Of a stretch of 64,000 nucleotides of DNA, positions 1,759-57,950 are shown piece after piece. A program made the position numbers and the translations under genes. The stretch is from assembly GCA_963796305.1 (NCBI GenBank), contig CAWCKZ010000006.1, positions 511,210 through 575,209 of the forward strand, in the 5' to 3' direction. Source of the DNA: an uncultured Solirubrobacteraceae bacterium. GTDB lineage: Bacteria > Actinomycetota > Thermoleophilia > Solirubrobacterales > Solirubrobacteraceae. Numbering within the stretch: the first letter of the stretch is position 1; each line of letters starts with the position of its first letter. The notes beneath the pieces are model-generated. The model ran no database searches, was not told where the DNA came from, and saw nothing but the letters and a program-made list of their open reading frames with translations.

Positions 1759-1766
1759 GACCTCAC

Positions 1767-11176: not shown

Positions 11177-11178
11177 GC

Positions 11179-12633: not shown

Positions 12634-12672
12634 GCGCCGCGACGCGACGCCGTTCGCCCGGGCGGCCCTCGA

Positions 12673-14669: not shown

Positions 14670-14851
14670 GTCGCCCTCCTTGGTAGCGGTCACCTACGGC
14701 CTTGCCTGGCCGCCGCCCGAGGCTACCCGGAGAACGGATCGAGAAACGCCCCGCCGCAGCCTCGTAACAGGGCACGCCCCGCCGCGCAGGGCTCATCCGC
14801 TCCGTGGCGCGCCGGGCGCGCTTGCCCGGAGCGACGTCCGCGGCGCCTTCG

Positions 14852-15256: not shown

Positions 15257-15262
15257 CCGCCC

Positions 15263-15834: not shown

Positions 15835-15944
15835 TCCGCCACTGTAGCCCGACGTATGCTCGGCGGGGCGGTGCAGCTGCTCGGCCGGCGATGCGGGGTC
15901 CGCGCGTGCCCGCGATCCGCGGGCGCGGGCCGCTCGCGGGCCGG

Positions 15945-39854: not shown

Positions 39855-41418
39855 TCAGGGTGCGGCGTGTTCTTCGCGTCTGCGCTGGCGTTCTTCGCGC
39901 AGCTTGAGGCGTTCTTCTTCGGTGCGCGGCGGTCGTTCGCTTTTACCGAAGCGTTTTTCTTCGCGTTTGTGTTCGCGTTCTTCTTCGCTCGGCGGCGTGC
40001 GAGATCCGCCCACCTTGTGCCGTTCTTCTTCGTCCTTGCGCTTGTTTTCTTCCGATTTGCGCTTGTGTTCTTCCGCCTTGTGCTGGCGTTCTTGGGCTTT
40101 CAGGGCACGTTCTTCGCTTTGCTTCTTGCGTGTCTTCTTCGGTCTTGTGGGTATGGCTCGAGCCACCGCCCGAAGACGACTTGGACGAGGATTCGCCGCC
40201 CTTGCCGTGGCTTTCCTTCGCCTTGCCCGAGCCGCCGCCACCACCGGCGCCGAGGTCGGGGATGGCGCCGGGCTGCACCTGCCCCCAGGTGTGCGTGACG
40301 CCGCTCTGCCCGCCGCCGGCGACGCGTCCGCCCGTTGCCGGGCGACCGCCCTGTGCGGTCCCTTCGCTCGCGGCGCCGAGGTAGCCGCCGCCGCTCGCGC
40401 GGCCCGTGGAGGCGGTGAGACGCAGCGAGCTGCGCCCCGATGACGACGCGCCGCTTTCGGAGCCCAGGGAGCCGTCGAGCGCGGCGACGCCGACTCCGGA
40501 GGCGGCGCCGACCGCAACGACCCCGGCGGCGACCTTTGCGACGAGCGCCTTCATGCCGCCGCCCGCGATCACCGCGGTCCCCGCCACCGAGCCGCCCACC
40601 GCGGTGCCGCCGACATACAGGCCGGGCATACCCGCGTTGTCGATCACGTCCTGGAGCGCCCGCATCTTCAGAGCGAGGGAGGGCACGATCGGCATCAGCG
40701 CGGCGAAGTGCCGGCGCTGTCCCGCGAGCGCGTCCTCGTACTCGCGGCATCCACCGCAGGTGCGCAGGTGCCGGCGCAGCCGGCGCTTGCGCAGCGCCGC
40801 GCCGCGCGCGGTGGCGAGCTCCTTGCGGATGTCCGTGCAGTCAGCCTCGCGGGCGACTCGCTCGGAGATCAGGTTGGTGCGCGCCTGGTAGGCATAGGCC
40901 TTCACCTGCTCGGAGCGCACGCCGAGGACCGTGGCGATCTCCGCCTGGCTCAGGCCGTGGAGCTCGGACAACACGAGCGTCGCCCGCTGGCGCTCGGGGA
41001 GCTCGCGCAGGTTGGCGAGCATGTGGCGGACCTCGTCGTGTACTTCGAGTTCGTGGTAGGGGTCGCCGTTCAGCGCCGGCTCGCCGTTGAGCTCCACCCA
41101 CGGGTGGCGCTTGCGCAGGGTGCTCAGGCAGCTGTTGCGCGCGATCGTGAACAGCCACGGCCGCAGCGTCACCGGCTTCTCGGTGGCGAGCAGCGACCGG
41201 TAGGCCGAGGCGAACGTCGCCTGGACGGCGTCCTCGGCGTCGTGCCGGGAGGCGAGCATGTAGAGGCAGAACGACAGGAGGCTCGACGAGTAGCGGTCGT
41301 ACAGCACCTCGAAGGCGGCGGGGTCGCCGTTGCGCACGCCTTTGACGAGCCGCTCGTCACCCGCCAGACGCAGCACGACGCGAGAGCCCTTCTGGAACGG
41401 TTGGTACCTCTCCGCCAA
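39855..41418 (-). CDS. ECF sigma factor with fused zinc-finger, TM-like segment and charged tail (frameshift near 40120)
   Basis: DAEDAVQATF, WLFTIARN, LPERQR...EIA and HLRTCGGC. Confidence 0.85.
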
Positions 41419-41765
41419 TTCTGCTCCCGTCGCGCACGCCGCACACCAGCCCGGCGTCTCTCCCTCTTGATGGTTCGAGCCCGTCGAACCGGCCTACAAA
41501 CTCGCGGTCATTATATGCCCTCGGATGCCTAGGCATGAACATTAGGCGCCCGGCAAGGCTCACTGAGCCGGTGCGCAAGCTGCTGTACGCCGGCACATCT
41601 CGGCGGCTGCTGCTTCATCGGGGCGCAACCCTTACTGCGTGGCGAGCAGACCAGCCGCCGCGCGGACACGGTCCACCGGTGCTTATGGTCGATTTAGCGC
41701 CGGCTTATCCTGAGCCCACACCATCCGGGTGCACTGCGGGGACGCCCGCTTAGTCAGAGGTCTCG

Positions 41766-42371
41766 ATGAAAGCGCTCCTGAAAAAGAAGCTGTTGGTGAC
41801 GGCGATCGCGGCGACGCTGCTCGGCGGCGGCGCCGTGGCGGTGGCGGCGACTCGCTCCGGCTCGTCCTCGAGCCGCGAAGCCTACCTCTCCGACGTCGCC
41901 AAACGGCTCGGCGTCTCGACGAGCGCGCTGACGAGCGCGATGCAGGCTGCCGGCATCGACAGGCTCGAAGCCGCGGTTGCGGAAGGCCGGCTGACGCCGG
42001 CCCAGGCGAGCAAGCTCGAGCAGAAGATCCGCGAAGGGAAGGGCCCGCTCTCCGGCAAGCCCGGCGCCCACGGCGGTCTGCTCGGCGTGACGGCGCGCTA
42101 CCTGGGCCTCACTCCACTGGCCCTGCGCACCCAGCGCGCCGCGGGCAAGTCGCTCGCGCAGATCGCGGCTGCCACCCCCGGCAAGTCGGCGGCGGGGCTC
42201 AGCGCGGCGATCACCTCCGCCGAGAAGGCGAAGCTGGCGGCGGCTGCCTCGAACGGGCGCATCACCTCGCAGCAGGCGCAAAGGCGGCTCCATGCGCTCG
42301 CCCCGCACGTCCAGACGCTCCTCCAGCGCACTGCTCCGCCGCGGGCGGGCGGGAAGCGGCACCGTGGCTGA
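41766..42371 (+). CDS. Secreted helical hypothetical protein
   Basis: Signal peptide; repeated AV..GRLT..QA; GKSLAQIA. Confidence 0.7.
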   Translation: MKALLKKKLLVTAIAATLLGGGAVAVAATRSGSSSSREAYLSDVAKRLGVSTSALTSAMQAAGIDRLEAAVAEGRLTPAQASKLEQKIREGKGPLSGKPGAHGGLLGVTARYLGLTPLALRTQRAAGKSLAQIAAATPGKSAAGLSAAITSAEKAKLAAAASNGRITSQQAQRRLHALAPHVQTLLQRTAPPRAGGKRHRG

Positions 42372-42984
42372 GAGCCCTCGGCAGCGGGACGGCGAGCGAG
42401 CTGCCGCCGGACGCCCGGGGATCGCGAAACGGCGATCCCGTGCGCTGAACAGCGCGGCCTCGCTCGTGGCGGCGGCGATGCTCGCGCTGGGGCTCGCCGC
42501 ATGCGGAAGCAGCGGCGGCTCCGGGGGAGAAGGTGGCGGGCAGGAACCGGCGGCGAGCGCCGAAGGAAGCCCGCAGCCGAAGAACCCGGTTCAGGCGCGC
42601 CTCGAAGCGGAAGCGTCGACGGTCGCGAAGGCCACCCCCCAGGCAGCCGTACCCGCGCAGGCCGCGACGGCGCACAAGCACAAGCACACGAAGACCCACC
42701 ACGCCAGGCATGGCTCCAAGACGACCTCCTCGCAGTCAACGAAGAGCCCCGCGCCCACCGGCAAGAACAAGAAGAACGCCGGAACCACGCCGAAACAGGC
42801 GCCGGCTACGGGCGGCCTCGAAGGGGTCGTGGTGACGCCCGTGAGCGGCACGCCCTCCCCGACCGCGCCGCCGTCGAGCTCCGGCTCGGGCTCGTCCGGT
42901 GGATCGAGCAAACATCACGGCTCGAAAAAAGAACCCACCCACACCAAAGAACACCACAAGAAAGAACCCAAAAAAGGGCCGTAG
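42364..42984 (+). CDS. Low-complexity lipoprotein
   Basis: Lipobox LAAC; S/G/K/H-rich. Confidence 0.55.
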   Translation: MAESPRQRDGERAAAGRPGIAKRRSRALNSAASLVAAAMLALGLAACGSSGGSGGEGGGQEPAASAEGSPQPKNPVQARLEAEASTVAKATPQAAVPAQAATAHKHKHTKTHHARHGSKTTSSQSTKSPAPTGKNKKNAGTTPKQAPATGGLEGVVVTPVSGTPSPTAPPSSSGSGSSGGSSKHHGSKKEPTHTKEHHKKEPKKGP

Positions 42985-42992
42985 GGGCGTCC

Positions 42993-44048
42993 TCAGAGCG
43001 TGCTGAGCCGGGGGATGACCTGCTCACCCATGAGCCGGACCTGCTCACCCAACGTGGGCAGGCCCTCGACCTCTATCCCCGCCCAGGCGTTCAGCGTGAA
43101 GGGGTCGGTGAACGACACCAGCGCGTGATTGAAGCCGGCTGCGGCGTAGGTGTCGGTCAGCCAGCGCACCCACTCCTCGGGCGTTCCGGCAACCATCACC
43201 CGGTCGGCGATCTCATCCGGAGTGGCTTCCAGCGCGCGCTGGACGTCGCCCGCCTCGAACGCTTCGTTGACCGGGGCGAGGAGCTCGGGCTCGATCCCGT
43301 GGCGCTCGAGGAGCGCCGGCGGCATCGAGGGGAGGTAGAAGGCGGCGAGCACCCTCCCGGCCCGGCGCGCCACCTCACCGTCGGGGGCGATCGCGCCGAG
43401 CAGGGAGTCGCCGAGGTCGAGGCCCTCGCGGCTGCGCCCGGCCCGCTCCGCGCCCGCGAAGAAATGGTGTGCCGCGTAACGCAGCGCCTCGGATGAATAG
43501 GCGCAGCCGGTGTGCAGGCCGTCGGCGATCTCGCCCGCGAGCTCCATCGACATAGGTCCGCCCATCGCCCCGATCTTGAGCGGCACGTGCTCCTGGACGG
43601 GGCGGGCTGCGGTGGTGACGCCGGTGTAGCTGTAGAAGTCGCCCTGGAAGTCGATCGAGCCCTCCTCGAGGAAAGTGCGCATCACGCGGTGCGCCTCGCG
43701 CAGGCGGGCGATCGGGCGCGTCCCCTGCCACTCGACGCCGTACTGCTCGAGCATCGCGATGTTGCCGATGCCGATCACGACCTCGGCCCGTCCGTCGCTG
43801 AGCTCGTCGAGCGTCGCGGCGAGCTGGGCGACATAGGTCGGCTCGCGCATGTAGATCGGCGCAACGCACGGCCCCAGTCGGATCCGCTCGGTGTGTTTCG
43901 CCGCCGCCGCGAACAGCAGCCAGGGATCGCGGTGGTAGATCTCGTCGGCGCTGTAGCAGGCGTGGTAGCCGAGCCGGTCGGCGAGCGCGATCGCATCGAG
44001 CAGCTCCGACGCCGGCTGCTGTGGGAGCAGCTGGAGGCTCAGCAGCAT
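42993..44048 (-). CDS. LLM-class flavin/F420-dependent oxidoreductase
   Basis: TERIRLG, ATLDELSDGR, GAMGGP..ELAGEIADG and VAGTPEE. Confidence 0.9.
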   Translation of the reverse strand: MLLSLQLLPQQPASELLDAIALADRLGYHACYSADEIYHRDPWLLFAAAAKHTERIRLGPCVAPIYMREPTYVAQLAATLDELSDGRAEVVIGIGNIAMLEQYGVEWQGTRPIARLREAHRVMRTFLEEGSIDFQGDFYSYTGVTTAARPVQEHVPLKIGAMGGPMSMELAGEIADGLHTGCAYSSEALRYAAHHFFAGAERAGRSREGLDLGDSLLGAIAPDGEVARRAGRVLAAFYLPSMPPALLERHGIEPELLAPVNEAFEAGDVQRALEATPDEIADRVMVAGTPEEWVRWLTDTYAAAGFNHALVSFTDPFTLNAWAGIEVEGLPTLGEQVRLMGEQVIPRLSTL

Positions 44049-44083
44049 GCGCGGGTGAGCGTAGCCCGTTCTGGCTCGGTGCC

Positions 44084-44097
44084 TACTCCACCGCGAA
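44084..44097 (+). repeat. Target-site direct repeat copy 1 (TACTCCACCGCGAA)
   Basis: Identical to 47231-47244 and 53720-53733; extends to 16 bp with the 53718 copy. Confidence 0.9.
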
Positions 44098-44122
44098 GAG
44101 AAGATAGATCCTGGCTCTCGAC

Positions 44123-44140
44123 CTGGACTAGCCGTGACAG
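44123..44140 (+). repeat. Left subterminal inverted repeat CTGGACTAGCCGTGACAG
   Basis: Exact reverse complement of 53676-53693; both lie about 25 bp inside the direct repeats. Confidence 0.9.
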
Positions 44141-44204
44141 GTCTTGGGCGGAGGGCCGATAGAGGGGCGGGGGGCTGCTGCTTCTCGTCTCTATGAAGGA
44201 GGGC

Positions 44205-44350
44205 TGGTTGTCAAGTGGCGATCTGTGGTTCGGGTCGTCGTCCTTTCACGGCTGTTGGTCTTGGAGCGACGCTCATGTCTCTATGGCCTCCTCATCGGGA
44301 GGACCAGGCGAAATTGGATGTTCGCTCGGGCGCAAGTCCAAAGAGGGCGG
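44205..44350 (-). ncRNA. Candidate seekRNA/bridge RNA region of the IS1111-type element
   Basis: Non-coding region after the transposase stop; contains CATAGAGAC (identical to the right-end/core sequence) and TTGGAC (identical to the target flank plus core). Confidence 0.6.
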
Positions 44351-45394
44351 TCAGGCCGCCAGACGAAAAGCGGCGCCTCGGGGAGCGAACTTCTCTTTGC
44401 GGGAAAGCATGTGCCAGATCGTGTGGGCGAGCCTTCGGGCGATGTCGACCTGGGCGACCTTGGCACCGCGCTGCTTTCCTAGCCGGCGCTTGGTTCGCTG
44501 GTACCGCTCGGAGTAGGCGGGGTGCCTCAGCGCGTGCATCGTCGCCTCGAGTAGCGCCCAGCGCAGGTAGGTCGGCCCGTGCTTGGTCAATGGGCCGCGG
44601 CGATCCTTCTCTCCAGACTGGTTCACGCGCGGACAAAGACCCGTGTAGCCGGCGAGCTTCTCTGGCGATGAGAAGCGCTCGATCTCGCCGATCTCGGCGG
44701 CGATCGTAAAGGCAAGGACCCAGCCGATCCCGGGCACCGTCAAGAGCAGCGGGACGTAGGGGTGCTCGGCGTGGCCCTCCTTCAGGCGGCGGTTGATCTC
44801 GGCGATCTGGCGTTCGAGGTCGTCGATCAGCTCGATCGAGGCGGTGATGTTGCCCCGCCAGGGCTCGGGCACCTGCAGTCGCTTCAACAGCCGGCGGCCC
44901 TCGACCCCGAACAGGTCGGTGACCGGGCACGGCTTGCCGAAGTTGATCAGGCTCGAGTGGATGCGGTTCTTGAGCGCCGACTTGTGCTTCACGAGATGCA
45001 ACCGGAAGCGGGCGAGCTCACGCTCCTCGCGGACGCTGGGATCGGGCAACCAGATCGCCGGCACCAGGTCGCGGTGACTGAGCACCGCAAGAACCTTCGA
45101 GTCGATCTTGTCGGTCTTGCACGCCAGCGGCGCGAGACCCTTGACCTTCTGGGCGTCGGCGATCTCGACAGACCAGCCCTGCTGCTCAAGCGTGTCGTGG
45201 ACGATCCTTGCGCCGGTCATCGACTCGATCACTGCGCAGACCGGCTGGCAATGGACTTCCTCGATGCGGCGAGCGAGCCTCCTAAGCGAGTCGACGTCGG
45301 GCGGCACGGCGAGCTGATCCAGATGCTCTCCCCGATCGGAGAGCAGGCAAACGTCAAGCTTCTTTCGACTTAGATCGAGTCCAGCGTGCAACAT
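44351..45394 (-). CDS. IS110 family transposase/recombinase
   Basis: AGLDLS, IES and KTDKID (DEDD); VPGIG, YTGLCP..QSG and LRWAL; AGGAGG RBS. Confidence 0.95.
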   Translation of the reverse strand: MLHAGLDLSRKKLDVCLLSDRGEHLDQLAVPPDVDSLRRLARRIEEVHCQPVCAVIESMTGARIVHDTLEQQGWSVEIADAQKVKGLAPLACKTDKIDSKVLAVLSHRDLVPAIWLPDPSVREERELARFRLHLVKHKSALKNRIHSSLINFGKPCPVTDLFGVEGRRLLKRLQVPEPWRGNITASIELIDDLERQIAEINRRLKEGHAEHPYVPLLLTVPGIGWVLAFTIAAEIGEIERFSSPEKLAGYTGLCPRVNQSGEKDRRGPLTKHGPTYLRWALLEATMHALRHPAYSERYQRTKRRLGKQRGAKVAQVDIARRLAHTIWHMLSRKEKFAPRGAAFRLAA

Positions 45395-45614
45395 GTAAAC
45401 GGGCCTCCTCGAGGTTGGTTCTCGATGACAAGCGGAGCTTGCCACCGAGGAGGCCCTCCTTCATGGCAGTCCAACCCAGGAGCCGAGGCGGTGTGCCTCG
45501 CCGCGCTCGCACCCGCACGGAAGCACTCGTGTCCGGCGCTTGCCGACCTGGGCCTCACACCGCGCGGTTATAGACTCCGCGGGCCCGCAGCCACGTTAGG
45601 TAGCGAGCGCCGAG

Positions 45615-47069
45615 ATGCCGAGCGACAAGATGAACCTGCTGCTGATCGTCACCGACCAAGAGCGCGCGCCGATGCACGTGCCGCCGGGGTTCGTGCAGAG
45701 CCGCCTAAGGACGCGCGAGCGGCTGTTGCGCAACGGTGTGAGCTTCGATAGCGCCGTCTGCAACGCGGCGATGTGCTCGCCGAGCCGCGCGACGTTCCTG
45801 ACCGGTGTGATGCCGGCTCGGCATGGGGTGCTCGACACGCTCACGACGAACGGTCCGGTATCTGCGACCGAGCGCGAGCTGCCCCTGGATCTGCCGAACA
45901 TCGCTTCGATGCTCGGCGCGGCCGGCTATGACGTCCACTACCGGGGGAAGTGGCATCTGAGCAAGCCATCCGGCGGCTCAGAGCTGACCGCCGATGACCT
46001 CGCACGCTACGGATTTCACGGCTGGGGAGCGCCGGATGCGGGCGAGGACACTCAGCCTGAGAACTTCGGAGGCGGCCGCGCTGGCCACGACGCTCGCTAC
46101 ATCCGCGAAGCGGTCGACTTCCTGGGGGAGCGCTCATCGGGAGTCTCGGAGCGTCCGTTCTGTCTTGTCCTTTCGCTCGTGAACCCTCACGACGTGCTCG
46201 CCTATCCGCGCAGCTGGTCGGATGACTACTCGGCCGAGGATCTCGAGGGCGACGTCGGTCTCCCGGCGAGCCACGGCGAGGACCTCGCGGGGAACCTCAA
46301 GCCGACGGCTCACGTGAAGATGGCTCCGATCCTCGACATGGCTGTTGGCGAGTTCGAGAGTGAGTCCGAGCGGCTGGCCTATGTGAACTTTTACGCGAAC
46401 CTGACTGCGAAGATAGACGAGCAGCTCGCGACGCTGATCGACCTGTTCTACGAGCGTGACGGCACGCCCACGAAGCTCGGCGAGGAGACGCTGATTGTTC
46501 GCTTCGCCGATCACGGAGAGCTCGCGATGTCCCACGGGGGTCTTCGCCAGAAGGCCTTCAACGTCTACGAGGAGACACTTCGCGTCCCGCTCATCTTCTC
46601 CAACCCACGCCTGGCGCCCAGCGGCGGCGGCGTGTGCGCGCACCCTGCGTCGCTCATCGACATCATCCCGACTGTCGCTTCGGTCCTGGACGTGAAGCCA
46701 ATCGAGCGCCTGGACGGAGCGGACCTCTCGCCGCTGATCCGCGAACCTGACGGGCCGGCGGTCCGAAAGGACGCTTATTTCACCTATGACGATCTCCACG
46801 CTAGCGCCGGGATGGTCAAGGAACTCCTGCCCGGGGTGCCAGGCAACATCCGCTGCGTGCGTGAGCCGCGTTTCAAGTTCGCGCGCTACTTCAACGAAGC
46901 CGGCGAGGCGCCCGACGAGCACGAGATGTACGACCTCGAGGCCGACCCCGGCGAGCTCGAGAACCTCGCCCACCCAGCGCACCCGCGCTTCTCCGACCCA
47001 GTCATCTGCTCAGAGCGGGAGCGCCTCGCATCACGCCTGGCGCAGCTCGAGCAGCAGCACACCGGGTAG
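45615..47069 (+). CDS. Sulfatase-like hydrolase
   Basis: TDQE, CSPSRATFLTG (FGly motif), GKWHL, NPHD, ADHGE and YDL..DPGE..NL. Confidence 0.9.
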   Translation: MPSDKMNLLLIVTDQERAPMHVPPGFVQSRLRTRERLLRNGVSFDSAVCNAAMCSPSRATFLTGVMPARHGVLDTLTTNGPVSATERELPLDLPNIASMLGAAGYDVHYRGKWHLSKPSGGSELTADDLARYGFHGWGAPDAGEDTQPENFGGGRAGHDARYIREAVDFLGERSSGVSERPFCLVLSLVNPHDVLAYPRSWSDDYSAEDLEGDVGLPASHGEDLAGNLKPTAHVKMAPILDMAVGEFESESERLAYVNFYANLTAKIDEQLATLIDLFYERDGTPTKLGEETLIVRFADHGELAMSHGGLRQKAFNVYEETLRVPLIFSNPRLAPSGGGVCAHPASLIDIIPTVASVLDVKPIERLDGADLSPLIREPDGPAVRKDAYFTYDDLHASAGMVKELLPGVPGNIRCVREPRFKFARYFNEAGEAPDEHEMYDLEADPGELENLAHPAHPRFSDPVICSERERLASRLAQLEQQHTG

Positions 47070-47135
47070 GCGGTTCGATCGGCGCGTCGCGGCGGCCGGC
47101 GGCGTTGCGAGCGCAAACCCGTCAGGCCACAGAGA

Positions 47136-47165
47136 CCGGACCGCTCGCAGCGGAAGGCGGTCCGG
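47136..47165 (+). terminator. GC hairpin downstream of the sulfatase
   Basis: CCGGACCGC-N12-GCGGTCCGG; no U-tract. Confidence 0.35.
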
Positions 47166-47230
47166 CCGCAGCACCGCGCCAACGCCGCAGCGGTTGCCAG
47201 CCTCAATCGTTTCCCGAGCCAGCTCCACGG

Positions 47231-47244
47231 TACTCCACCGCGAA
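47231..47244 (+). repeat. Target-site direct repeat copy 2
   Basis: TACTCCACCGCGAA, intergenic, followed by GGGAG. Confidence 0.85.
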
Positions 47245-47323
47245 GGGAGTAAGGGAGCGCCCCTAAGTCGGACGCCGGTGACGAGTATCTCGGCAGCGAG
47301 TACGCGACCTTCAGCGTCTGAGG

Positions 47324-47349
47324 GGGATAGGAGATAGGGAGTCTGGGAA
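47324..47349 (+). repeat. Imperfect left terminal inverted repeat matching the 53695-53719 end
   Basis: GGGATAGGAGATAGGGAGTCTGGGAA versus GGGAGAGCAGATAGGGGGTC-GGGAA (22 identities, 1 gap). Confidence 0.7.
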
Positions 47350-47416
47350 TGGCCCCTCCGAGCGGCGAGTGCGATCCGTAGGGGCAGTTCAACGTGGTCG
47401 GCTTTGCGAGGGCGCG

Positions 47417-47876
47417 TTAGCGCCTTGCTCTCCGGTTCTGCCGCCGGCGCACGCCACAAACGGATACTGGACTCAACGGTCGGCCGATCGGGTCGATGAA
47501 CAGCGAGCACGGTCCCGAGCTGCCGGGCACCTTCCCCTCCAGGACGGTGGCGCTGTATGTGAGGCTGGCCCCGTCGAGGCGTGGGTTGGTGAGCGTCACG
47601 ACGACGTCCTCGGGCATCTGGTCACCCTCCTCGAGGAACGAGAGGACAGCGTTCGGAGGATCGTCGAGGAAGCTGTTTTCACCGTCTGCCCAGCCCTCTA
47701 ACGAACTGGGCGGCTGTGAGATGTCCGACGATGCGCTCGGGCCTGTCCGAGAACATCAGAGTTGAGGGCGCGAGATCGTGCAGCGTGAACTCGCCGTTGC
47801 GGCTCGTGACTCCCTGTGCGCTCTGTACGTATAGAGCCTCGAACTCGTCTGGCTGCACCTCTGGCTGTGATGACAT
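47417..47876 (-). CDS. Conserved hypothetical protein (frameshift near 47700)
   Basis: LYVQSA, FSDRPERIVG, SF..DPPNAVL and LFIDPIGRPLSPVSV; AAGGAGG RBS. Confidence 0.7.
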
Positions 47877-47987
47877 CTGAGCCTCCTTCTGGGGCGTCGA
47901 ACATTCGCTTCGGACGAAGCACAGCGGACATCCTCCAATGGCGCGCGACAGCTTCCATCGGTAGTCGCCCGCACAGGGTTCCGCTGT

Positions 47988-48635
47988 TCAGCGGCGGGAC
48001 CGGCGGCGGGACTGGTGTCGTGGAAGCGCCGCGAAGAGGATCATGTATAGCGCGACCGCGAAGTAGAGCGCTACGGCCACCCGGGGTGCGACGAGCCCGA
48101 TCAGGATCGCGACCAGGTACCCGCCGAGCACGGGAAGCAGTTCGAGGGGCTCATCCTGCTGCGCTTCGCCGGCTTCCGGGGGCGAGGAGAGATGCTCGCG
48201 TCGGGCATAGGCGTCCAGGGCGAAGCCGAGAACCCGGATGGCCAGCAAGGTGAGCCCGTACATCGTCACAAAGACGCGCTCGCTTGTGTTGGAGTGCAAG
48301 GCGTCCGCGACTAGTTTCGTCGGGAATGGCAGGAACGCCACCACGAGCAACACCAGCAGGTTGATTCGCAGAAACAGCGGATCTGTCCGCGTGAGCCCCT
48401 CGGTGAGCTGCGTGTGTCCCAGCCAGGCTGCGCCGATCGTGAGGAAGCTGACGACATACGCGAAGTAGAACGGCCAGGCTTTGAGCACCTGTTCGAGTGC
48501 TGTGCCCGGCGGATGAATCGCGATGTCGAGCACGAGCAGCGTCGCGGCGATCGAGAACACGCCGTCGCTGAACGCTTCCATACGCGTAGTGCTGAGCGAT
48601 CGGCGCGCGCGCGGCAAGTCGTCGCCGGAGGCCAT
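47988..48635 (-). CDS. TMEM175 (DUF1211) family potassium channel
   Basis: RMEAFSDGVFSIAATLLVL, YVVSF..IG..W..H and FLPFPT. Confidence 0.9.
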   Translation of the reverse strand: MASGDDLPRARRSLSTTRMEAFSDGVFSIAATLLVLDIAIHPPGTALEQVLKAWPFYFAYVVSFLTIGAAWLGHTQLTEGLTRTDPLFLRINLLVLLVVAFLPFPTKLVADALHSNTSERVFVTMYGLTLLAIRVLGFALDAYARREHLSSPPEAGEAQQDEPLELLPVLGGYLVAILIGLVAPRVAVALYFAVALYMILFAALPRHQSRRRSRR

Positions 48636-48828
48636 GCGGCATCCTTACAGGTCGCCGATCGAGACTCAGATGGCCCAGCCACGAGCGGCCAGGGGCAGGC
48701 GAAACACGGACTGGCGACCGTATTACTCCCGGATGCTCGCCAGCCCCTCCGAGGCGCATAGTGCGCCGCAGAAGGACGGTGCGGGGGGCGGAGATCTCTC
48801 GCGGCTATCACGATGAGGAGGTCAGATC

Positions 48829-49404
48829 GTGTCTACGCTTGATGAGGAGCACGGTGCACTAGCACGCGCTTGGTGGTTGGTGATGTTGTTCGGCGCGGCG
48901 GTATTCTGCGTCGGCGTCTTCTTCGTCGTTTCACCACACGAAACGCTGAGCACGTTCACCGTGATCGCCGGGATCTTTCTGCTGGTCGACGGGTTACTGG
49001 CAATCGGCACGTCGATCTTCGCCAGAGGGGAAGGGCGCGGCATGCTGGCGTTGATCGGGGTGCTCAGCGCGATCGCCGGCCTGGTCCTCATCAAGAAACC
49101 GTTCGGCACGCTCGTCGTCTTCGTGCTCGTCCTCGGAGTGTGGTTCATCGTGGCCGGCGTGGTGCGCTTCGTTTCCGCTTTCGGTGAGCCCGAGGGGCGT
49201 GCGTCGAACATCGCGATCGCGATCCTCGACGTAGTCGCCGGCATCGTCATCCTGTCCTGGCCCGGTATCGGCCTGACCACGCTCGCAGTGATAATCGGCA
49301 TCGTGCTAATCGTGCGCGGCGCCCTGTTCTTCATAGGCGGCTGGGAGCTGCGCCGACTCGGTCACGAAGCCGACAGCGCACTAAGGGCGCACCCCGCAAC
49401 CTGA
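48829..49404 (+). CDS. HdeD/DUF308 membrane protein
   Basis: WW N-terminus and six TM helices in a repeated G..G pattern. Confidence 0.8.
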   Translation: MSTLDEEHGALARAWWLVMLFGAAVFCVGVFFVVSPHETLSTFTVIAGIFLLVDGLLAIGTSIFARGEGRGMLALIGVLSAIAGLVLIKKPFGTLVVFVLVLGVWFIVAGVVRFVSAFGEPEGRASNIAIAILDVVAGIVILSWPGIGLTTLAVIIGIVLIVRGALFFIGGWELRRLGHEADSALRAHPAT

Positions 49405-49525
49405 CAGTCGAAATACCTGGGGTCGTGGCGCGGGGCGTCGAATGGTTTGTCCGAGCGCCGTAGACCCGCGTAGGTGGGCCGCCGACGCTGACAATCAGAA
49501 CCTCGTTCAAACAAAAGGAGAGCCG

Positions 49526-49986
49526 ATGTTCAAGACCTTCAGCAGACCGGCAGTCGTAGCGGCAATTCTGCTTCTCCCGATAGGGCTGGCCGCGTGTGGC
49601 GAATCGTCTGAAGAAAAAGCGACAGCGCAGGTCTGCTCCTCCACCAAGGAAATCCAGGCCCAGCTCTCCAAACTGTCAAGCCTGTCGATTTCCTCAACGG
49701 CACCGGAAGAAATCAAGACCGCCGCCGAAGTGATGAAAAAGGAAGCGGCGAAGATCAACGAATCCGTCTCCGAATCTGCCCGCTTCGAGCAAGAGTCAAG
49801 TGGAAACCGCGCAGAAAGCGCTCCAGGCCGAGCTTGTAGCACTCGCGAAAGACTGCGGCGTCAACAGCAAAATCCTCAGGGAACGTCGAAGCCGTGCTCA
49901 AGGAATCCGCGCCCGCGGTGAAGACTGCGGTCGCCGGGCTTGCGGTGAGCTACAAGCAGGCATTCGAATCCCTGAAATGCTCTTAG
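49526..49986 (+). CDS. Lipoprotein (frameshifted)
   Basis: AAGGAG RBS, lipobox LAAC, VC...C-terminal Cys. Confidence 0.65.
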
Positions 49987-50236
49987 CTCGGTGTTGAGGG
50001 CCTCTCTCGGCGAGATTCCACGATGACTGCGGGCGGCGGAATCCGGGGTCGCCATCGCCACCGAGGGCACGTACTGGACGCGCGACTCGTCTGCATGAAG
50101 TAAAGGGACTCGCCTGCGGAAAAGCACCGACTTTGGCGCGGGCTTTCGCGGGATGCCCAGAGGGCGGACAAAAGGCATGGTTTATTGCGAATGCGCCCGG
50201 CGACGGGCGAACTACGAAGCCTGAACAGGAGATCGA

Positions 50237-50749
50237 ATGAGCGACAACCCGGTTTTCATCTACGCCGCGACCTACGCCGACCGCGCCGGCGCCGAAGCGG
50301 ACTACGACGCCCTTCTTGAACTGCATGCGGCGAAGCTCGTGGGCACCTATGACGTTGCGCTGGTCACCAAGGACGCTGATGGCAAGGTCCAGGTCGAGAA
50401 GCACGAGAAGCCCACCCAGCACGGAGCATGGGGAGGCATCGCCGTCGGAGCGGCGGTCGGGGTCGTGGCCGCGCCAGCGGTCATCCCCGCGGCACTGGTC
50501 GGCGGTGTCATCGGAGGTCTCGGCGGACACTTCAAAAAGGGCATCCCGGGGGACGCCGCCAAGGAACTGGGCGACCTCATCGAAGCCGGAGAGGCAACGC
50601 TGTTCGTGATCGGCGAATCGCGCCTTGAAGAACAGCTCGACAAGCTGCTCACGCGCGCTGAAAAGACGGTCGAGAAGGAAATCGACGTCGACGCCAAGGA
50701 GTTCAAGAAGGAACTCGACAAGGCCGAGAAGGAATACGCGGCGGCCTAG
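50237..50749 (+). CDS. DUF1269 family protein
   Basis: YD.A.V.KD.DGKV followed by a glycine-zipper hairpin. Confidence 0.8.
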   Translation: MSDNPVFIYAATYADRAGAEADYDALLELHAAKLVGTYDVALVTKDADGKVQVEKHEKPTQHGAWGGIAVGAAVGVVAAPAVIPAALVGGVIGGLGGHFKKGIPGDAAKELGDLIEAGEATLFVIGESRLEEQLDKLLTRAEKTVEKEIDVDAKEFKKELDKAEKEYAAA

Positions 50750-50784
50750 CCGGCCGATATCCCAGCGTGTGAGCGTGGAAGGGC

Positions 50785-52449
50785 GTGAACGAGGTGTCGA
50801 GTAAGGCAGCCGCGGCAGCGGCCGGCGGTGTTCTGCTGACGCTGTGCGCGGGCCAGTTCCTGATGATGCTCGACAGCTCGGTGATGAACGTGTCGATCGC
50901 GACGGTCGCAAAGGACGTCGGCACGACCGTCACCGGGATCCAGACGGCGATCACGCTCTACACGCTGGTGATGGCCGCGTTCATGATCACCGGCGGGAAG
51001 GTCGGCCAGATCATCGGCCGCAAGCGCGCCTTCGCGATCGGGTGCGTGATCTACGGCTGCGGCTCGTTCATCACGGCGATCTCTACGAGCCTCGGGGTGC
51101 TGCTGCTCGGATGGTCCTGCCTCGAGGGCATCGGGGCGGTGCTGATCCTGCCGTCGATCGTCGCGCTGGTGGCGGTGAACTACGGAATCGACGAACGGCC
51201 GCGCGCCTACGGGCTGATCGCCGCCGCGACCGCGATCGCGATCGGGGTCGGCCCGATCGTTGGCGGCCTGTTCACCACCTACCTCTCGTGGCGCTGGGTG
51301 TTCGCGGGCGAGGTAGTGATCGTGCTGGGGATTCTCGTCCTCGCCCGCCGCATACCCGAGGGGCCGCGTGAGAAGGGGGGGCACCTGGACCTCGTGGGGA
51401 CAGCGCTGTCGGCGCTTGGACTCGGGCTGATCGTGTTCGGGGTCCTGCGTTCGGGCGTGTGGGGTTTCGTCAAACCCAAACCGGGGGCCCCCGAATGGAT
51501 CGGGCTCTCGCCCGTGATCTGGCTGATGCTCGCGGGCGCTCTGGTCATCTATCTGTTCATTGAGTGGGAGGATCGGGTGCTCGCCCGCGGCGGCGAGCCG
51601 CTGATCGACCCCAAGATCCTGCAGGTCCACGTGCTGCGCGGCGGCCTGAACTCGTTCTTCTTTCAGTTCTTCGTGCAAAGCGGCGTGGCCTTTGCCGTCC
51701 CGCTGTTCCTCTCGGTCGCGCTCGGGCTCTCCGCGATCCAGACAGGCGTGAGGTTTCTGCCGCTGTCGATCGCCCTGATCCTCGCGGCAGCCGGCATCCC
51801 CAAGCTCTTCCCCAAAGCATCGCCGCGCCGGGTGGTCCGGCTCGGTTTCATTGCGATGTTTGCCGGCCTCGTGATCTTGGTCGCGGCGCTCCAGGAAGGC
51901 GCGGGTGCGGAGATAACCACCTTCCCGATGCTGCTCGTCGGCCTGGGAATCGGAGCGTTGTCCTCCCAGCTCGGGGCCGTCACCGTCTCCTCCGTTCCCG
52001 ATGAGCAGAGCAGCGCGGTGGGCGGGCTGCAGAACACGATCACCAACCTCGGCATCTCCATGGGCACCGCGCTGACGGGAGCGATCGTCATCGCGGCGCT
52101 CAGCACCTCGTTCCTGACGGGGGTGCAGCAAAACTCCGCCGTCCCCGCGCCGGTCAAATCGCAGGCCTCCACCCAGCTCGCCGGAGGCGTCCCCTTCATC
52201 TCCGACAAACAATTGACGGAGGCGCTCCACAAGGCCCATGTGCCACCAAGGGCCACAGACGCCATCGTCGAAGAGAACGCGAAAGCGCGCCTCGACGGGC
52301 TGCGCGAGGCACTGTCGATACTCGCAATCTTCGCCTTGATCGGACTGGCCTTCAGCCGGCGGATCCCTGCCGACCCACCCGGTTCGTCGAAAGAACCGGC
52401 TCCCGCGGCAGAAACGGCCCCCATAACGCAAACGGCTGCAGCAGCGTGA
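50785..52449 (+). CDS. MFS transporter (14-TM DHA2-like)
   Basis: QFLMMLDSSVMNVS, GGKVG.IIGRKR and GPIVGG....SWRW. Confidence 0.9.
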   Translation: MNEVSSKAAAAAAGGVLLTLCAGQFLMMLDSSVMNVSIATVAKDVGTTVTGIQTAITLYTLVMAAFMITGGKVGQIIGRKRAFAIGCVIYGCGSFITAISTSLGVLLLGWSCLEGIGAVLILPSIVALVAVNYGIDERPRAYGLIAAATAIAIGVGPIVGGLFTTYLSWRWVFAGEVVIVLGILVLARRIPEGPREKGGHLDLVGTALSALGLGLIVFGVLRSGVWGFVKPKPGAPEWIGLSPVIWLMLAGALVIYLFIEWEDRVLARGGEPLIDPKILQVHVLRGGLNSFFFQFFVQSGVAFAVPLFLSVALGLSAIQTGVRFLPLSIALILAAAGIPKLFPKASPRRVVRLGFIAMFAGLVILVAALQEGAGAEITTFPMLLVGLGIGALSSQLGAVTVSSVPDEQSSAVGGLQNTITNLGISMGTALTGAIVIAALSTSFLTGVQQNSAVPAPVKSQASTQLAGGVPFISDKQLTEALHKAHVPPRATDAIVEENAKARLDGLREALSILAIFALIGLAFSRRIPADPPGSSKEPAPAAETAPITQTAAAA

Positions 52450-52486
52450 CTTTGCCCAGCTCAGCCACAAAGGATCGTGGTCGCGG

Positions 52487-53185
52487 ATGCCTGAGGGTCT
52501 TTCAGCGACCGAGGTGGGCAAAGAGATCGCCGAGCATCGCGAGCACCACGCCCCAGAGGATCACTCCCGGCGTGACCGCTACGTTTCGATCGCTGAGGCC
52601 GTGCTGCTCTCGCTCGTGGCGATCATGGCCGCATGGTCGGGGTACGCAGCGGCCAAGTGGGGCACCGACTCCTCGCTTTCACTGGCGAAAGCCTCCTCCA
52701 CACGGACGAAAGCCAACCAAGCCGCCATCGAAGCGACGCAGATCCGCACGCTGGACTCGGTGGACTTCAATGCCGCAATCACTGCCTACGCCTCGCACAA
52801 TCCCCTGCTCTTCCGCGTCGCGCTCAAGCGGCTGCGCCCGAGCGCACTCGCCGCCGTCGAAGCATGGCGGGCCACCAAGCCCCTCACGAACCCAAACGCG
52901 CCAGCGGATCCGTCTGACATGCCGCAGTACCGGATACCACAACAGGCCCAAGCCAAGGCCCTGAACGCGAAGGCCGATGCCTACTTCAACCGCGGCCAGT
53001 CAGCCGCTGGAACGGCAGACAAGTACGTGCGCCTCACAGTCTTCCTGGCGGCCGTCCTATTCCTCGTCGGGATCGGTAGCCGCCTTCCGCTGCCCGCCGC
53101 TCGCTACGGGCTGGTCGGGGTCGCCAGCGTGATGTTCGTCGTATCGGTCGTGGAGCTCCTCAGCCTTCGGGGACCACCGAGCTGA
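52487..53185 (+). CDS. Membrane protein (DUF4337-like)
   Basis: EAVLLS...AWSGY.AAKW; one N-terminal and two C-terminal TM helices. Confidence 0.65.
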   Translation: MPEGLSATEVGKEIAEHREHHAPEDHSRRDRYVSIAEAVLLSLVAIMAAWSGYAAAKWGTDSSLSLAKASSTRTKANQAAIEATQIRTLDSVDFNAAITAYASHNPLLFRVALKRLRPSALAAVEAWRATKPLTNPNAPADPSDMPQYRIPQQAQAKALNAKADAYFNRGQSAAGTADKYVRLTVFLAAVLFLVGIGSRLPLPAARYGLVGVASVMFVVSVVELLSLRGPPS

Positions 53186-53375
53186 CGCCGCGTAGCGCCT
53201 CCCAATGCCGCGGGTGGGGGACGCGCTTCCCGAGCCGGATAAGCGAGCAGTAGTGCTCGGATAGGTCGGTGGCGGCGACGAGCTTCCCGATGGGCAGGTA
53301 CCGCAGGCCGGGCAGGATCTCGCTCGTGAAAACCGCTGGGTCGGGTCGCCCCCCGGCCCACGCCTTGACGGCGAC
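53160..53375 (-). pseudogene. C-terminal HTH remnant resembling solo Cas1 (casposase-like) proteins
   Basis: W..GRPDPAVF..EILPGL...ATDLSEHYCSLIRLGKRVPHPRHW; recalled resemblance only; no Cas1 catalytic domain present. Confidence 0.55.
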
Positions 53376-53630
53376 GCGTTCGCGCGGCGAAGGTTCGACG
53401 TTCTGCTTTCGCGCGCCCGTGAGACAATCCGTCTGCCTTACGACGAACCGAGCGAGAAGGCCTACTTGAAGGCGGGCCAAGAGATCGCTAACCAAAGTGA
53501 GGTCTTGCTTGCCGTCTGGGACGGCCAACCAGCGGGAGGTCTCGGCGGCACCGCCGACGTCGTTCGTTATGCGCTTGGGAGCGGCACGAACGTGAAAGTC
53601 GTTTGGCCTGCGGGCTGCGCCCGCGTATGA
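53373..53630 (+). pseudogene. 5'-truncated SLOG-superfamily (YspA-like) gene, absent from the ORF track
   Basis: Translates RRFDVLLSRARETIRLPYDEPSEKAYLKAG...LLAVWDGQPAGGLGGTADVVRYA...VVWP; TGA at 53628; no start codon. Confidence 0.7.
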
Positions 53631-53675
53631 CGTGGTTGATCCGGCCAGGGCTTGGCTGATCCCGCCCGTGGCGTG

Positions 53676-53719
53676 CTGTCACGGCTAGTCCAGCTTCCCG
53701 ACCCCCTATCTGCTCTCCC
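53676..53719 (-). repeat. Right end of the element (terminal and subterminal inverted repeat)
   Basis: Reads inward GGGAGAGCAGATAGGGGGTCGGGAAG-CTGGACTAGCCGTGACAG. Confidence 0.85.
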
Positions 53720-55203
53720 TACTCCACCGCGAACGCGACGTACTTCGTCTCGAGGTACTCCTCGATCCCCTCGAAGCCGCCCTCGCGGCCGAAGCCCGAC
53801 TGCTTGACGCCGCCGAAGGGGGCGGCGGCGTTGGACACCATGCCCTGGTTGAGCCCCACCATCCCGGTTTCGATCCCCTCGCACACGCGGAAGGCCCTGC
53901 CGAGGTCGCGCGTGTAGACGTAGGCGACGAGCCCGTACTCGGTGCGGTTGGCGGCGGCGATCGCCTCCGCCTCACTCGTGAACGCGCACACCGGAGCGAC
54001 CGGGCCGAAGATCTCCTCGCTCAGCAGCCGCGCATCCGCGGGCACGTCGGCGAGCACGGTGGGCTCGAAGAAGTAGCCGCGGCCGTCCACGGCGCTGCCG
54101 CCGATCAGCACCTTCGCGCCGCGATCCGCGGCATCGCCGACGAGCTCCTCCACCTTGCCGCGCTGAGCAGCGTCGATCAGCGGCCCGACGTCCACGCCCT
54201 CATCGGTGCCGCGGCCGAGCTTCAGCTCGCTCATGCGCTGGGCGAGCCGTGCGGCGAACTCGCCGGCAAGCGACTCGTGCACGTGGAAGCGGTTGGCGGC
54301 GGTGCACGCCTCGCCGACGTTGCGCATCTTCGCGAGCATCGCGCCGTCCACCGCCGCGTCGAGGTCGGCGTCCTCGAACACGACGAACGGAGCGTTGCCC
54401 CCGAGCTCCATCGACACCCTCAGCACCTGATGCGCCGACTGCTCGATCAGCCTCCGTCCGACCTCTGTGGACCCCGTGAACGAGAGCTTGCGCGTGCGCG
54501 GATCCTTCAGCAGCGGTTCCACCACCGCGCTCGAGCGCCTCGCCGTGATCACGTTGAGCACGCCCTCGGGCAGTCCCGCCTCCTCGAGGATGCGCGCGAG
54601 CGCGAGCATCGAGAGCGGCGTCTGCTGCGCGGGCTTCACCACCATCGTGCAGCCGGCGGCGATCGCCGGAGCGATCTTGCGCGTCCCCATCGCGGTGGGG
54701 AAGTTCCAGGGCGTGACGAACACACACGGTCCCACCGGCTGGTGCATCGTGAGGATCCGGCCATTGCCCGTCGTGTTCACCATGTAGCGGCCGTGGATCC
54801 GCACCGCCTCCTCGGAGAACCAGCGGAAGAACTCTGCGGCGTAGGTGATCTCCGCCCGCGACTCGGCGAGCGCCTTACCCATCTCGAGCGTCATCAGCAG
54901 AGCGAGTTCGTCGCGCTGCTCGACGATCGCCTCGAATGCCCGGCGCAGGATCTCGCCGCGCTCGCGCGGAGCGTGAGCGCCCCACGCCGCCTGCGCGTCC
55001 GCGGCGGCGGCGAGCGCGTCGAGCGCATCCTGCTCCTGGGCGTCCGCCACCTCCACCAGCGCCTCGCCCGTCGCCGGGTCCTCGACGGGGAGCGTGCCGC
55101 CGCCCGAGGCCGCGCGCCAGCGCCCGCCGATGAAGAGCTCCTTCGGTGCCCGGTCGAGCACCGCCTGCTCTGAGGGAGCCGCCGTGATCGTGCCGTCGCT
55201 CAC
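53719..55203 (-). CDS. gabD: NAD(P)-dependent succinate-semialdehyde dehydrogenase
   Basis: PWNFP, FTGSTEVG, MELGGNAP, EACTAANR, EEIFGP and PFGGVKQSG.GREG. Confidence 0.88.
   Translation of the reverse strand: MSDGTITAAPSEQAVLDRAPKELFIGGRWRAASGGGTLPVEDPATGEALVEVADAQEQDALDALAAAADAQAAWGAHAPRERGEILRRAFEAIVEQRDELALLMTLEMGKALAESRAEITYAAEFFRWFSEEAVRIHGRYMVNTTGNGRILTMHQPVGPCVFVTPWNFPTAMGTRKIAPAIAAGCTMVVKPAQQTPLSMLALARILEEAGLPEGVLNVITARRSSAVVEPLLKDPRTRKLSFTGSTEVGRRLIEQSAHQVLRVSMELGGNAPFVVFEDADLDAAVDGAMLAKMRNVGEACTAANRFHVHESLAGEFAARLAQRMSELKLGRGTDEGVDVGPLIDAAQRGKVEELVGDAADRGAKVLIGGSAVDGRGYFFEPTVLADVPADARLLSEEIFGPVAPVCAFTSEAEAIAAANRTEYGLVAYVYTRDLGRAFRVCEGIETGMVGLNQGMVSNAAAPFGGVKQSGFGREGGFEGIEEYLETKYVAFAVE
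53720..53733 (+). repeat. Target-site direct repeat copy 3 (last codons of the gabD-like gene)
   Basis: Minus strand TTC GCG GTG GAG TA(G) = F A V E stop. Confidence 0.9.
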
Positions 55204-55331
55204 CGATCCAACGTACCAAGCACAACCCATCCTGCAGGGCTAACGGCCGTCCCGGCGGTGCCGAGAGGGAGCACATGCGAGCCCAGCTCGACCGCTACCG
55301 CGGCAGCCTGCCAGTGTTTGGGTCCTCGAGC

Positions 55332-56447
55332 ATGTCGCACACGCGAAGCACACGCACAGGCGCGAATGCTCGCGGGCGCCCCCGCCCGGGCCGCGCGATG
55401 CTCGCCCCACTGCTCGCGCTCGCCGCGCTCGGCCCGGGCGCCGCCGCGAGCGCTCGCGTGCCCGTGAAACCGAGCGCCCACGCATCCGCAGCCGCGACGA
55501 TGCTGATCGAAGGCGCCGGCGACGGACATGGCGTGGGCATGAGCCAGGATGGCGCCTACGGCTTCGCGCGGCACGGCTGGAACTACCAGCAGATCCTCGC
55601 CCACTACTACACGGGCACCACGCTCGGCGTCGCTCCCGCGAAGGCAACCATCAAGGTGCTCGTCGGCTCGAAGGTGGTGAAGCTGCCCCTCGAGCGCTAC
55701 GTGCGCCGCGTCATCGCCGCGGAGATGCCCTCCGAATGGCCCGCCGCGGCGCTTCAGGCGCAGGCCGTGGCGAGCCGCACGTACGCCCTCACCGCGCACG
55801 CCGGCGGCTCGCGCTTCGACGTCTACTCCGACACGCGCTCGCAGGTCTACGGCGGCGCCGCCGCCGAAACCGCTCCCACGAGCGCCGCCGTCGCCGCCAC
55901 CGCCGGCCAGATCGTGCTGTACGGCGGCCATCCCGCGACGACGTATTTCTTCGCGAGCTCCGGCGGCATGACCGAGGACATCCAGAACTCGTTCCTCGGC
56001 TCGGCGCCCGAGCCGTGGCTGCGCGGCGTGCCCGACCCGTACGACAAAGGACGGGCTGCGAGCTGGCGCGTGTCGATGAGCTTCAGCTCCGTGGCGACGC
56101 GGCTGCAGGGCCTCGTCAAGGGCGCGTTCCGCGGCATCGAGGTGCTGCGGCGCGGCATCTCTCCGCGCATCGTCTCGGCGCTCGTGCTCGGCTCGCGCGG
56201 GAGGACGCCCGTCGACGGCCCCGAACTCGCGGCGCGCCTCGGCCTCGACAGCACGTGGGCGTACTTCAGCGTGCGCCGCGGAGCGACGGTCAGGCGCGAG
56301 CCCGATCACAGCGGGCTCCCGGCCGCGAACCTCCCGCATAGCACCCCGGTCGCGCCGCACGCCCCGTCGGCCGGCAAGCAGGGCGGCGCCCAGGCTCCCA
56401 GTGCGGGCAAACCCGCCTCTGCCGCGGGCGGCGTCGTCGCCGGCTAG
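55332..56447 (+). CDS. SpoIID/LytB domain protein (start uncertain)
   Basis: GHGVGMSQ.GA, ILAHYY, EMP..W...L.AQAVASRTYA and QVYGG. Confidence 0.88.
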   Translation: MSHTRSTRTGANARGRPRPGRAMLAPLLALAALGPGAAASARVPVKPSAHASAAATMLIEGAGDGHGVGMSQDGAYGFARHGWNYQQILAHYYTGTTLGVAPAKATIKVLVGSKVVKLPLERYVRRVIAAEMPSEWPAAALQAQAVASRTYALTAHAGGSRFDVYSDTRSQVYGGAAAETAPTSAAVAATAGQIVLYGGHPATTYFFASSGGMTEDIQNSFLGSAPEPWLRGVPDPYDKGRAASWRVSMSFSSVATRLQGLVKGAFRGIEVLRRGISPRIVSALVLGSRGRTPVDGPELAARLGLDSTWAYFSVRRGATVRREPDHSGLPAANLPHSTPVAPHAPSAGKQGGAQAPSAGKPASAAGGVVAG

Positions 56448-56540
56448 CGCTCTAGGCAACATCCGTCCGCGCGGCGTGCCCGCCGTCCGCTGCCCGTGCA
56501 AGATGGTCCGGTATCGGTGGCGCCTGCCGATAACCGGACC

Positions 56541-56984: not shown

Positions 56985-57018
56985 ACGCGGCGACGCACGG
57001 ACGCGTACGCTGCGCCGC

Positions 57019-57918: not shown

Positions 57919-57950
57919 CGCGAACCGCGCCAGCGAACAGGCTCCCCCGC

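Follow-up and report, generated by a model that had tools for sequence, protein, structure and literature searches.

The CRISPR adaptation module is presumed to descend from casposons. Tn7, a transposon with TnsABCD proteins, reads conserved coding sequence at the 3′ end of glmS (attTn7) and inserts just downstream of it with a 5-bp duplication, leaving the gene unharmed. This parallel with casposons has been cited (PMC4779613). Most casposons in the published work consulted come from archaea and are autonomous, and those of bacteria were reported from intergenic DNA; all bacterial (family 3) casposons known by 2016 were located in intergenic regions (PMC4779613). Tandem casposons sharing one target-site duplication have been described in Methanosarcina spp. 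(family 2; Krupovic et al. 2016, PMC4779613) and, for family 1, in the ef-2 gene of Ca. Nitrosopumilus adriaticus NF5 (Krupovic et al. 2019, PMC6563490). Solo casposon terminal inverted repeats (TIRs) are also known from published work. [quoted passage not shown] Tandem integration by this enzyme was observed in vitro, with the 3′ end of tRNA-Pro as the leader (Beguin et al. 2016, PMC5137440; 2019, PMC6614799). In the casposon literature searched, we found no description of a non-autonomous casposon, of a bacterial gene-end target, or of enzyme-less cargo units with mixed ends, and a full-text search on casposon and aldehyde dehydrogenase found no paper.

Here we analyzed a 64,000-nt stretch (the window) of a 3.6-Mb, 80%-complete MAG of an uncultured Solirubrobacteraceae bacterium from soil, in which a 9.6-kb island adjoins the end of an intact gabD-like aldehyde dehydrogenase gene (hereafter gabD; 53719–55230, minus strand; 503 aa; Pfam Aldedh, 2e-165). 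The initial annotation proposed that an internal exact 14-mer splits this island into unit A (44098–47230) and unit B (47245–53719), and this division was borne out. The 14-mer, TACTCCACCGCGAA, occurs exactly three times in the window (44084–44097, 47231–47244, and 53720–53733) with no other exact copy, and one further match elsewhere in the window was found at 2 mismatches. In 100 shuffles, the mean number of matches at ≤ 2 mismatches was 0.33 and no shuffle reached four; the uniform expectation of one extra exact copy in 64 kb, a computation that the annotation had called for, is ca. 5e-4. Read in reverse complement, TACTCCACCGCGAA gives the last codons of gabD (F-A-V-E). Copy 3 (53720–53733) is these codons themselves, and the adjoining TIR contributes its first G to complete the gabD stop codon. 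Copy 2 (47231–47244) abuts the GGGAG tip of another TIR and is the distal duplication of unit B, while copy 1 (44084–44097), the most distal, lies 35 nt upstream of the start of an LLM gene; none of the relatives examined has such a gene downstream of gabD. The GC content between the outer 14-mers was 0.57–0.69 compared with 0.70–0.76 in the flanks, changing from 0.64 inside the island to 0.70 outside at the 44084 boundary. The repeat is a target-site duplication, as the annotation had supposed for each event: an exact 14-nt duplication flanks unit B, and three copies are spread across the whole island. The island is probably a decayed tandem array made up of two units derived from casposons, each put in place by a Cas1-family casposase at the 14-nt end of gabD.

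Two types of TIRs were distinguished. Type-1 ends consist of the tip GGGAG, an AGATAGG box, 14 nt, and an 18-mer, a layout that recurs right after the stop codon of orthologous gabD in other species of the genus. In the window, the 18-mer forms a perfect inverted repeat (44123–44140 and 53676–53693) ca. 26 nt inside each outer 14-mer, and no further copy was found in the 3.6-Mb MAG; it is conserved across the whole type-1 end family. A profile built from 12 type-1 ends of other genomes, with the window excluded, matched 53719–53676 (E 9.7e-12) and 44097–44141 (E 8.6e-7). The former is the gabD-proximal right end of unit B (53676–53719, minus strand), which has a complete tip and is the one clear right end in the island. 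The latter is the left end of unit A (44098–44141, plus strand), which matches model positions 5–46, ca. 4 tip nucleotides being gone. The type-2 profile, built from five copies of other genomes, matched only 47245–47275 in the window (plus strand; E 2.1e-10), the left (distal) end of unit B. The GGGAG noted earlier after the internal 14-mer is thus present and is the tip of this full type-2 TIR. When 46600–47420 was searched by BLAST against 400 genus genomes, 47245–47275 was 30/32 identical to both ends of a complete 13.9-kb element encoding Cas1 and a PolB-like protein at gabD in G109, where the type-2 TIR stands at both ends in inverted orientation, and 94–97% identical to the sequence directly after the gabD stop codon in G109, G419, and G407. 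The reading of 47245–47283 as a mere degenerate end or aldehyde dehydrogenase fragment was rejected because this search identified it as a second TIR type. Type-1 and type-2 TIRs have only the 5-nt tip GGGAG in common. Directly to the left of the internal 14-mer, no TIR of either type was found with these profiles.

The origin of these ends was indicated by complete relatives. At the orthologous gabD of G316, an uncultured Solirubrobacteraceae MAG (Microflora Danica) of a sister species, a 16.5-kb element is bounded by perfect copies of a 45-bp TIR and encodes a 538-aa Cas1 homolog (PF01867, 2.7e-42; PDB 6opm casposase, 2e-21; 4n06 Cas1, 1e-26), although in phmmer searches against PDB this casposase was no closer to the family 2 casposase 6opm than to CRISPR Cas1 4n06. 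Its 1168-aa protein had no sequence match in Pfam or PDB, and its nearest ESM-Atlas clusters were family-B polymerases (DNA_pol_B/DNA_pol_B_2), so that it may be called PolB-like by language-model likeness only. The element also has a small HNH-like ORF, an HTH protein, and a C5 methyltransferase. A Vulcanimicrobiota MAG and G109 each have a homolog of the large PolB-like gene next to Cas1, and the Cas1 gene of G109 is nearly full length. The family to which these ends belong is a casposon family. Since complete relatives with the same ends encode Cas1, the island is casposon-derived; it is not an autonomous casposon, and an intact Cas1 gene is absent from it. The likeness to spacer acquisition that the initial annotation had drawn is therefore one of homology to Cas1-based integration, not just analogy. 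As for the CRISPR array itself, its features were absent: the inserts are 3.1 and 6.5 kb long, and no other Cas1 was found in the MAG beyond the relic described below.

In addition to the genes described above, the G316 casposon (L050, G316:C1:726200–745200; 1023–17567), which is complete and apparently recent, carries a DDE IS, an MntP-like pump, a cation-efflux fragment, and a DUF5677/SEC-C protein; its subterminal site is present in one extra, internal copy (14599–14617). In other phyla, casposases 38–46% identical to the G316 enzyme were present in L056 (the Vulcanimicrobiota MAG), where the same divergent PolB-like gene accompanies the casposase in the same arrangement as in G316, and in L057 (a Coriobacteriia MAG).

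gabD orthologs (79–85% aa identity, same upstream neighbor) were the target at every other locus examined, with variable DNA downstream, and empty gabD sites were found in other species (G027, G036, and G021). A conserved segment of gabD encoding EYLETKYVA (53734–53760, minus strand) contains AAGTACGT at 53738–53745. In seven elements from six genomes, the duplication starts 4 nt after AAGTACGT (codons K-Y-V), while its own sequence differs each time. The duplication is 14 nt in unit B of the window, in G207, G316, and G109, and in a 2.4-kb element of G419; in G353, 13 of 14 nt agree. The pattern AAGTACGT-N18-GGGAG was present in 19 of 151 genus genomes and its reversed control in none of the 151, AAGTACGT being also under coding constraint. 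Thirteen of 20 such matches lay at a gabD ortholog; the profiles confirmed two as type-1 and four as type-2 ends, and several others look degenerate. From this comparison, we infer that the end of gabD behaves like a leader, in keeping with the role first assigned to it.

These findings also bear on a site-specific accretion, in which the 14-mer would be the att core of a lost tyrosine or serine recombinase, as in the tandem accretion of CIME/ICE. A direct repeat at the 3′ end of a gene whose ORF is preserved would suit such a history, as would the lack of any recombinase in the island, in whose ORFs no recombinase domain was found by Pfam. However, the ends of the units are inverted repeats, the direct repeat is constant in length (14 nt) and position, and complete relatives with the same ends encode Cas1, with no integrase domain among their ORFs scanned. 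Moreover, the sequence of the repeat follows the gabD end of each host, which argues for duplication by staggered cuts and not for a shared att core. We therefore regard accretion by an integrase as highly improbable. Integrase, Tn7, and integron readings were all rejected because Pfam detected no matching domains in the ORFs of the island and its relatives; Tns-type domains were absent from the ORFs of the island and G316, and the duplication is 14 nt, not 5 bp.

Unit B has perfect 14-nt duplications and perfect tips on both sides, although its TIRs differ in type (type 2 on the left and type 1 on the right). It is a complete, Cas1-less, non-autonomous hybrid unit with mixed ends. Immediately inside its type-2 TIR, 47276–47323 (plus strand) encodes the 3′ end of a foreign aldehyde dehydrogenase (translation ending ..EYLGSEYATFSV*). 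This relic consists of a "leader" of ca. 33 nt and its own 14-nt duplication (47310–47323), and it obeys the same rule of leader, 4 nt, and 14 nt. It is followed by the outer half of a type-1 TIR (47324–47349, plus strand), from which the subterminal site has been lost; its profile match alone is weak (E 13), and it is believable as a half TIR only from its context. The initial annotation had described a 26-nt sequence here that matched the right terminus at 22 positions. We obtained 22/26 against the reverse complement of the right terminus when one 1-nt gap was allowed, but 20/26 ungapped. Because the matched region includes the spacer, which is variable in the family and here resembles that of the right end, the half TIR and the right end of unit B probably began as the two ends of a single type-1 element.

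A composite of type-2 TIR, relic, and type-1 TIR adjoins the real gabD in G187 with 72% identity, and homology to the window ends at 47349 (BLAST). The same composite being present there, the end at 47324 was inherited in a travelling composite end and did not arise from a third local insertion. Similar relics were seen in four genomes, in which a type-1 TIR is preceded by ca. 47 nt of a foreign aldehyde dehydrogenase tail comprising the leader and its own 14-nt segment: the window (47276–47323), L028 (G187:C10, ca. 3634–3680), L026 (G004:C4, ca. 10169–10215), and L027 (G027:C9, ca. 4867–4910). All four start within a codon of the EYL motif, and two of the four have no full gene after them. 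The common left limit suggests a mechanism such as a long duplication, carry-over of the flank, or a portable target.

The cargo of unit B (47419–53186) comprises genes for a TMEM175-like channel, DUF308, DUF1269, an MFS transporter, and two unnamed genes (Pfam). It is 89–94% identical at the nucleotide level to rearranged chromosomal clusters in G005, G012, G002, and G004, unlike gabD, which is at most 86% identical to that of any of 60 relatives. Since the cargo is this similar although the core genes are far more diverged, the comparison points to the membrane-protein cluster having been exchanged recently within the genus. The counterparts, in which the gene order differs, lie at G005:C1:1197652–1207237 and on G012:C1, G002:C1, and G004:C2.

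Next to the cargo, 53181–53390 (minus strand) encodes the C-terminal relic of a casposase (ca. 65–70 aa), which shows 64–70% aa identity to residues 463–532 of the G316 enzyme. The similarity fades ca. 50 codons into its ORF, and ca. 290 nt of other DNA (53390–53675) precede the right TIR. When the right-end region was compared with 200 genus genomes, no close match was found; the best matches (77–78%) were all casposase coding sequence. No trace of the 1168-aa protein of G316 was detected by tblastn in the window from 40000 to 58000, and the 80%-complete MAG contained no intact casposase and no trace of Cas1 besides the relic. In the genus, casposase matches occurred in at least 13 of 401 genomes. 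Full-length uninterrupted genes were found only in G316 and G129, and most of the remaining matches were C-terminal relics. The relics in G353, G081, G006, G020, G004 (two), and the window nearly always retain only the C-terminal part, from residue 330–477 to the end. For the C-terminal 209 aa of the casposase, PDB and Pfam gave nothing useful. The relics of the window, G353, and G006 are oriented away from gabD, whereas the near-complete genes of G316 and G109 are oriented towards it. The MAGs appear to be derived from Nanopore reads, and small frameshifts in the relatives may be sequencing errors; no weight was therefore placed on single ones.

Cas1-less units with intact tips and duplications were present in G207 (3.7 kb), G353 (6.3 kb), and G419 (2.4 kb) as well as in the window. 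The simplest reading is that such units were mobilized in trans; since the MAG has no intact casposase, mobilization in trans would lie in the past or have depended on a donor since lost.

Unit A is bounded on the left by its type-1 TIR and contains an IS110-family insertion sequence (44174–45562, minus strand) with a transposase at 44351–45445 (Pfam DEDD_Tnp_IS110 and Transposase_20), whose limits were set from copies at 90–94% identity in G004, G035, and G006. This complete IS110/IS1111-type element sits 32 nt inside the left TIR. As the agent of the island it was rejected, being a separate nested copy whose limits touch no 14-mer. The cargo of unit A is a sulfatase gene (45615–47069, plus strand; Pfam Sulfatase, 3.8e-34), which is only 37–43% identical at the amino acid level to homologs of the genus and lower in GC than the flanks. 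For the right end of unit A, neither profile matched 47070–47230 even at E 100, and no relative of 47189–47230 was found by BLAST among the 400 genus genomes. Unit A thus has a chipped tip, an IS110 inside, and no right end, which agrees with the decay that had been proposed for the island. The published tandem arrangement consists of two complete TIR-bounded units with one shared duplication; with unit A lacking its right TIR, this locus is a decayed form of it. Abortive excision or integration of a one-ended fragment can only be guessed at as the way in which unit A lost its proximal end at the border of the duplication.

Units A and B might alternatively have been fused earlier, as the inner ends of an array decayed in a lineage with the same gabD end, and have arrived or last been moved as one 9.6-kb block bounded by the outer pair of type-1 TIRs, the internal 14-mer being an inherited scar that does not record the latest local event. 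This reading would explain why both outer ends are of type 1 with a perfect 18-nt subterminal site in common and why both flanks of the internal 14-mer are non-canonical for a simple array of type-1 units, and the G187 locus indicates that composite ends do travel as units. Against it, the 18-mer is family-wide, so its identity at the two ends shows no partnership, and the left tip lacks ca. 4 nt whereas both junctions of unit B are perfect. In addition, the 14-mer differs in every other element examined, and the most likely birthplace of the internal copy is this gabD or another with an identical end; two sequential integrations are therefore implied even by a fused block. We consider the movement of one block unlikely.

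It was also considered that the assembler had joined the gabD inserts of two strains at the shared 14-mer. The genome is a MAG, and among the Logan contig pieces listed none bridges 47231; the joints listed have sides of 18–38 nt and look like other organisms. Short Logan contigs (X1 and X2; depth 3–5) contain the organism, and the X1 contig (53514–53773) spans the right end, the 14-mer, and gabD. However, an overlap of 14 nt is far too short for a long-read join, the right side of unit A does not resemble a TIR-bearing end that once lay against gabD, and comparable arrays exist in other assemblies (G353 and G187). An artificial join is thus very improbable. Neither the relatives nor the read contigs searched contained a form of this gabD allele with A only, with B only, or empty, no relative among the genus genomes searched carried unit A or B at the gabD site, and a 26-mer of this gabD end had no match in JGI metagenome contigs.

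For the two-unit array, we propose the following history. By analogy with the A. boonei enzyme, the casposase would read the conserved gabD coding sequence around AAGTACGT as a leader and cut the strands with a 14-nt stagger that begins 4 nt downstream of AAGTACGT, where the 3′ ends of the element would be joined; gap repair would then duplicate the 14 nt. The gene-proximal copy would retain the leader and could be used again, so that a new unit would land between gabD and the older unit. The right duplication of unit B is continuous with gabD, which suggests that B entered the gene-proximal copy beside an existing A, and hence that A is the older and B the younger unit. Unit A, with its type-1 TIR and sulfatase, would have arrived first, received the IS110 later, and then lost 4 nucleotides of its tip along with its proximal end. 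Unit B would have followed after its polymerase and most of its casposase gene had been replaced by the 5.8-kb membrane-protein cargo, carrying from an earlier site an old junction of foreign gabD leader, duplication, and half type-1 TIR. That unit B is perfect at gabD and unit A more decayed fits an order with the newest unit next to the leader, as in G353, where a complete Cas1-less 6.3-kb unit adjoins gabD and is followed distally by a copy of the duplication, a TIR tip, and a casposase relic.

The initial annotation had envisaged three left ends facing one right end and repeated integration at the gabD-proximal copy. All three left ends exist, as does the single right end, but they are unequal in strength: the one at 47245 is of type 2, and the one at 47324 is half of a type-1 TIR. 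The latter comes with a foreign leader and duplication of its own and therefore arrived with unit B, leaving two local integrations, not three. The proposed mechanism was right in kind for a two-unit array; the number of local events was not.

Compared with the archaeal tandem arrays, the host here is bacterial, the target is a gabD-like aldehyde dehydrogenase gene, and both units are without Cas1 and PolB; furthermore, one unit has two TIR types and the older unit has no proximal end. The family resembles family 3 casposons (PMC4046053, PMC4779613) in its bacterial hosts, which include Actinobacteria, and in its gene content, since the elements of G316 and G109 carry Cas1 with a C-terminal extension, a large PolB-like gene, a small HNH-like ORF, and a methyltransferase. 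Unlike the intergenic family 3 casposons, the elements here overlap the last codons and the stop codon of a gene. In sequence comparisons, the length of the duplication and its fixed offset from an upstream motif are as in A. boonei, whereas the putative leader is conserved coding sequence (codons E-T-K-Y-V) in place of the end of tRNA-Pro. As with Tn7, a site that is used again and again comes to hold an island of partly dead elements; unlike Tn7, the duplication is 14 nt, and Pfam scans of the ORFs tested detected no Tns homolog. CRISPR spacer acquisition by Cas1–Cas2 shares with this family a homologous enzyme, staggered cuts over a repeat of fixed length beside a leader, duplication of that repeat, and a leader-proximal position of the newest insert. 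In contrast to CRISPR, the inserts are 3–6.5 kb long with genes and ends of their own, the end of a host gene acts as the "repeat", and there are no Cas2, effector genes, or palindromic repeat.

In this bacterial lineage, the conserved end of a housekeeping gene serves as a putative leader with 14 nt duplicated at a fixed offset, and units appear to accumulate directionally, including enzyme-less cargo units of 2.4–6.5 kb and one mixed-end unit. If such units are mobilized in trans, casposases would be general cassette-capture machines that need little of the inserted DNA, and this minimal end requirement would be a property later exploited by spacer acquisition. A bolder and doubtful extension is that the gabD end is a natural leader at which Cas1 enzymes stack enzyme-less, gene-sized cassettes with the GGGAG tip as the sole requirement, some cassettes carrying a portable leader and duplication (ca. 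47 nt, in four genomes) that could seed arrays away from gabD. Were this so, different TIR types could be paired, and the family would represent an extant intermediate linking a transposon insertion site to a leader–repeat array. The family offers a simple bacterial system, composed of a target plasmid and a mini-element, for studying leader reading and end requirements.

Two further loci of the family showed features of their own. In L027 (G027:C9), genes for a ParA-like AAA_31 ATPase and then a RiboL-PSP HEPN protein (3160–4804) lie just inside the type-1 TIR and are defense-like cargo in a casposon-derived unit. In L052 (G338:C14), one end (6334–6428) has the ca. 19-nt subterminal site in two direct copies spaced 51 nt apart, a doubling that looks like the multiple protein-binding sites in a transposon end.
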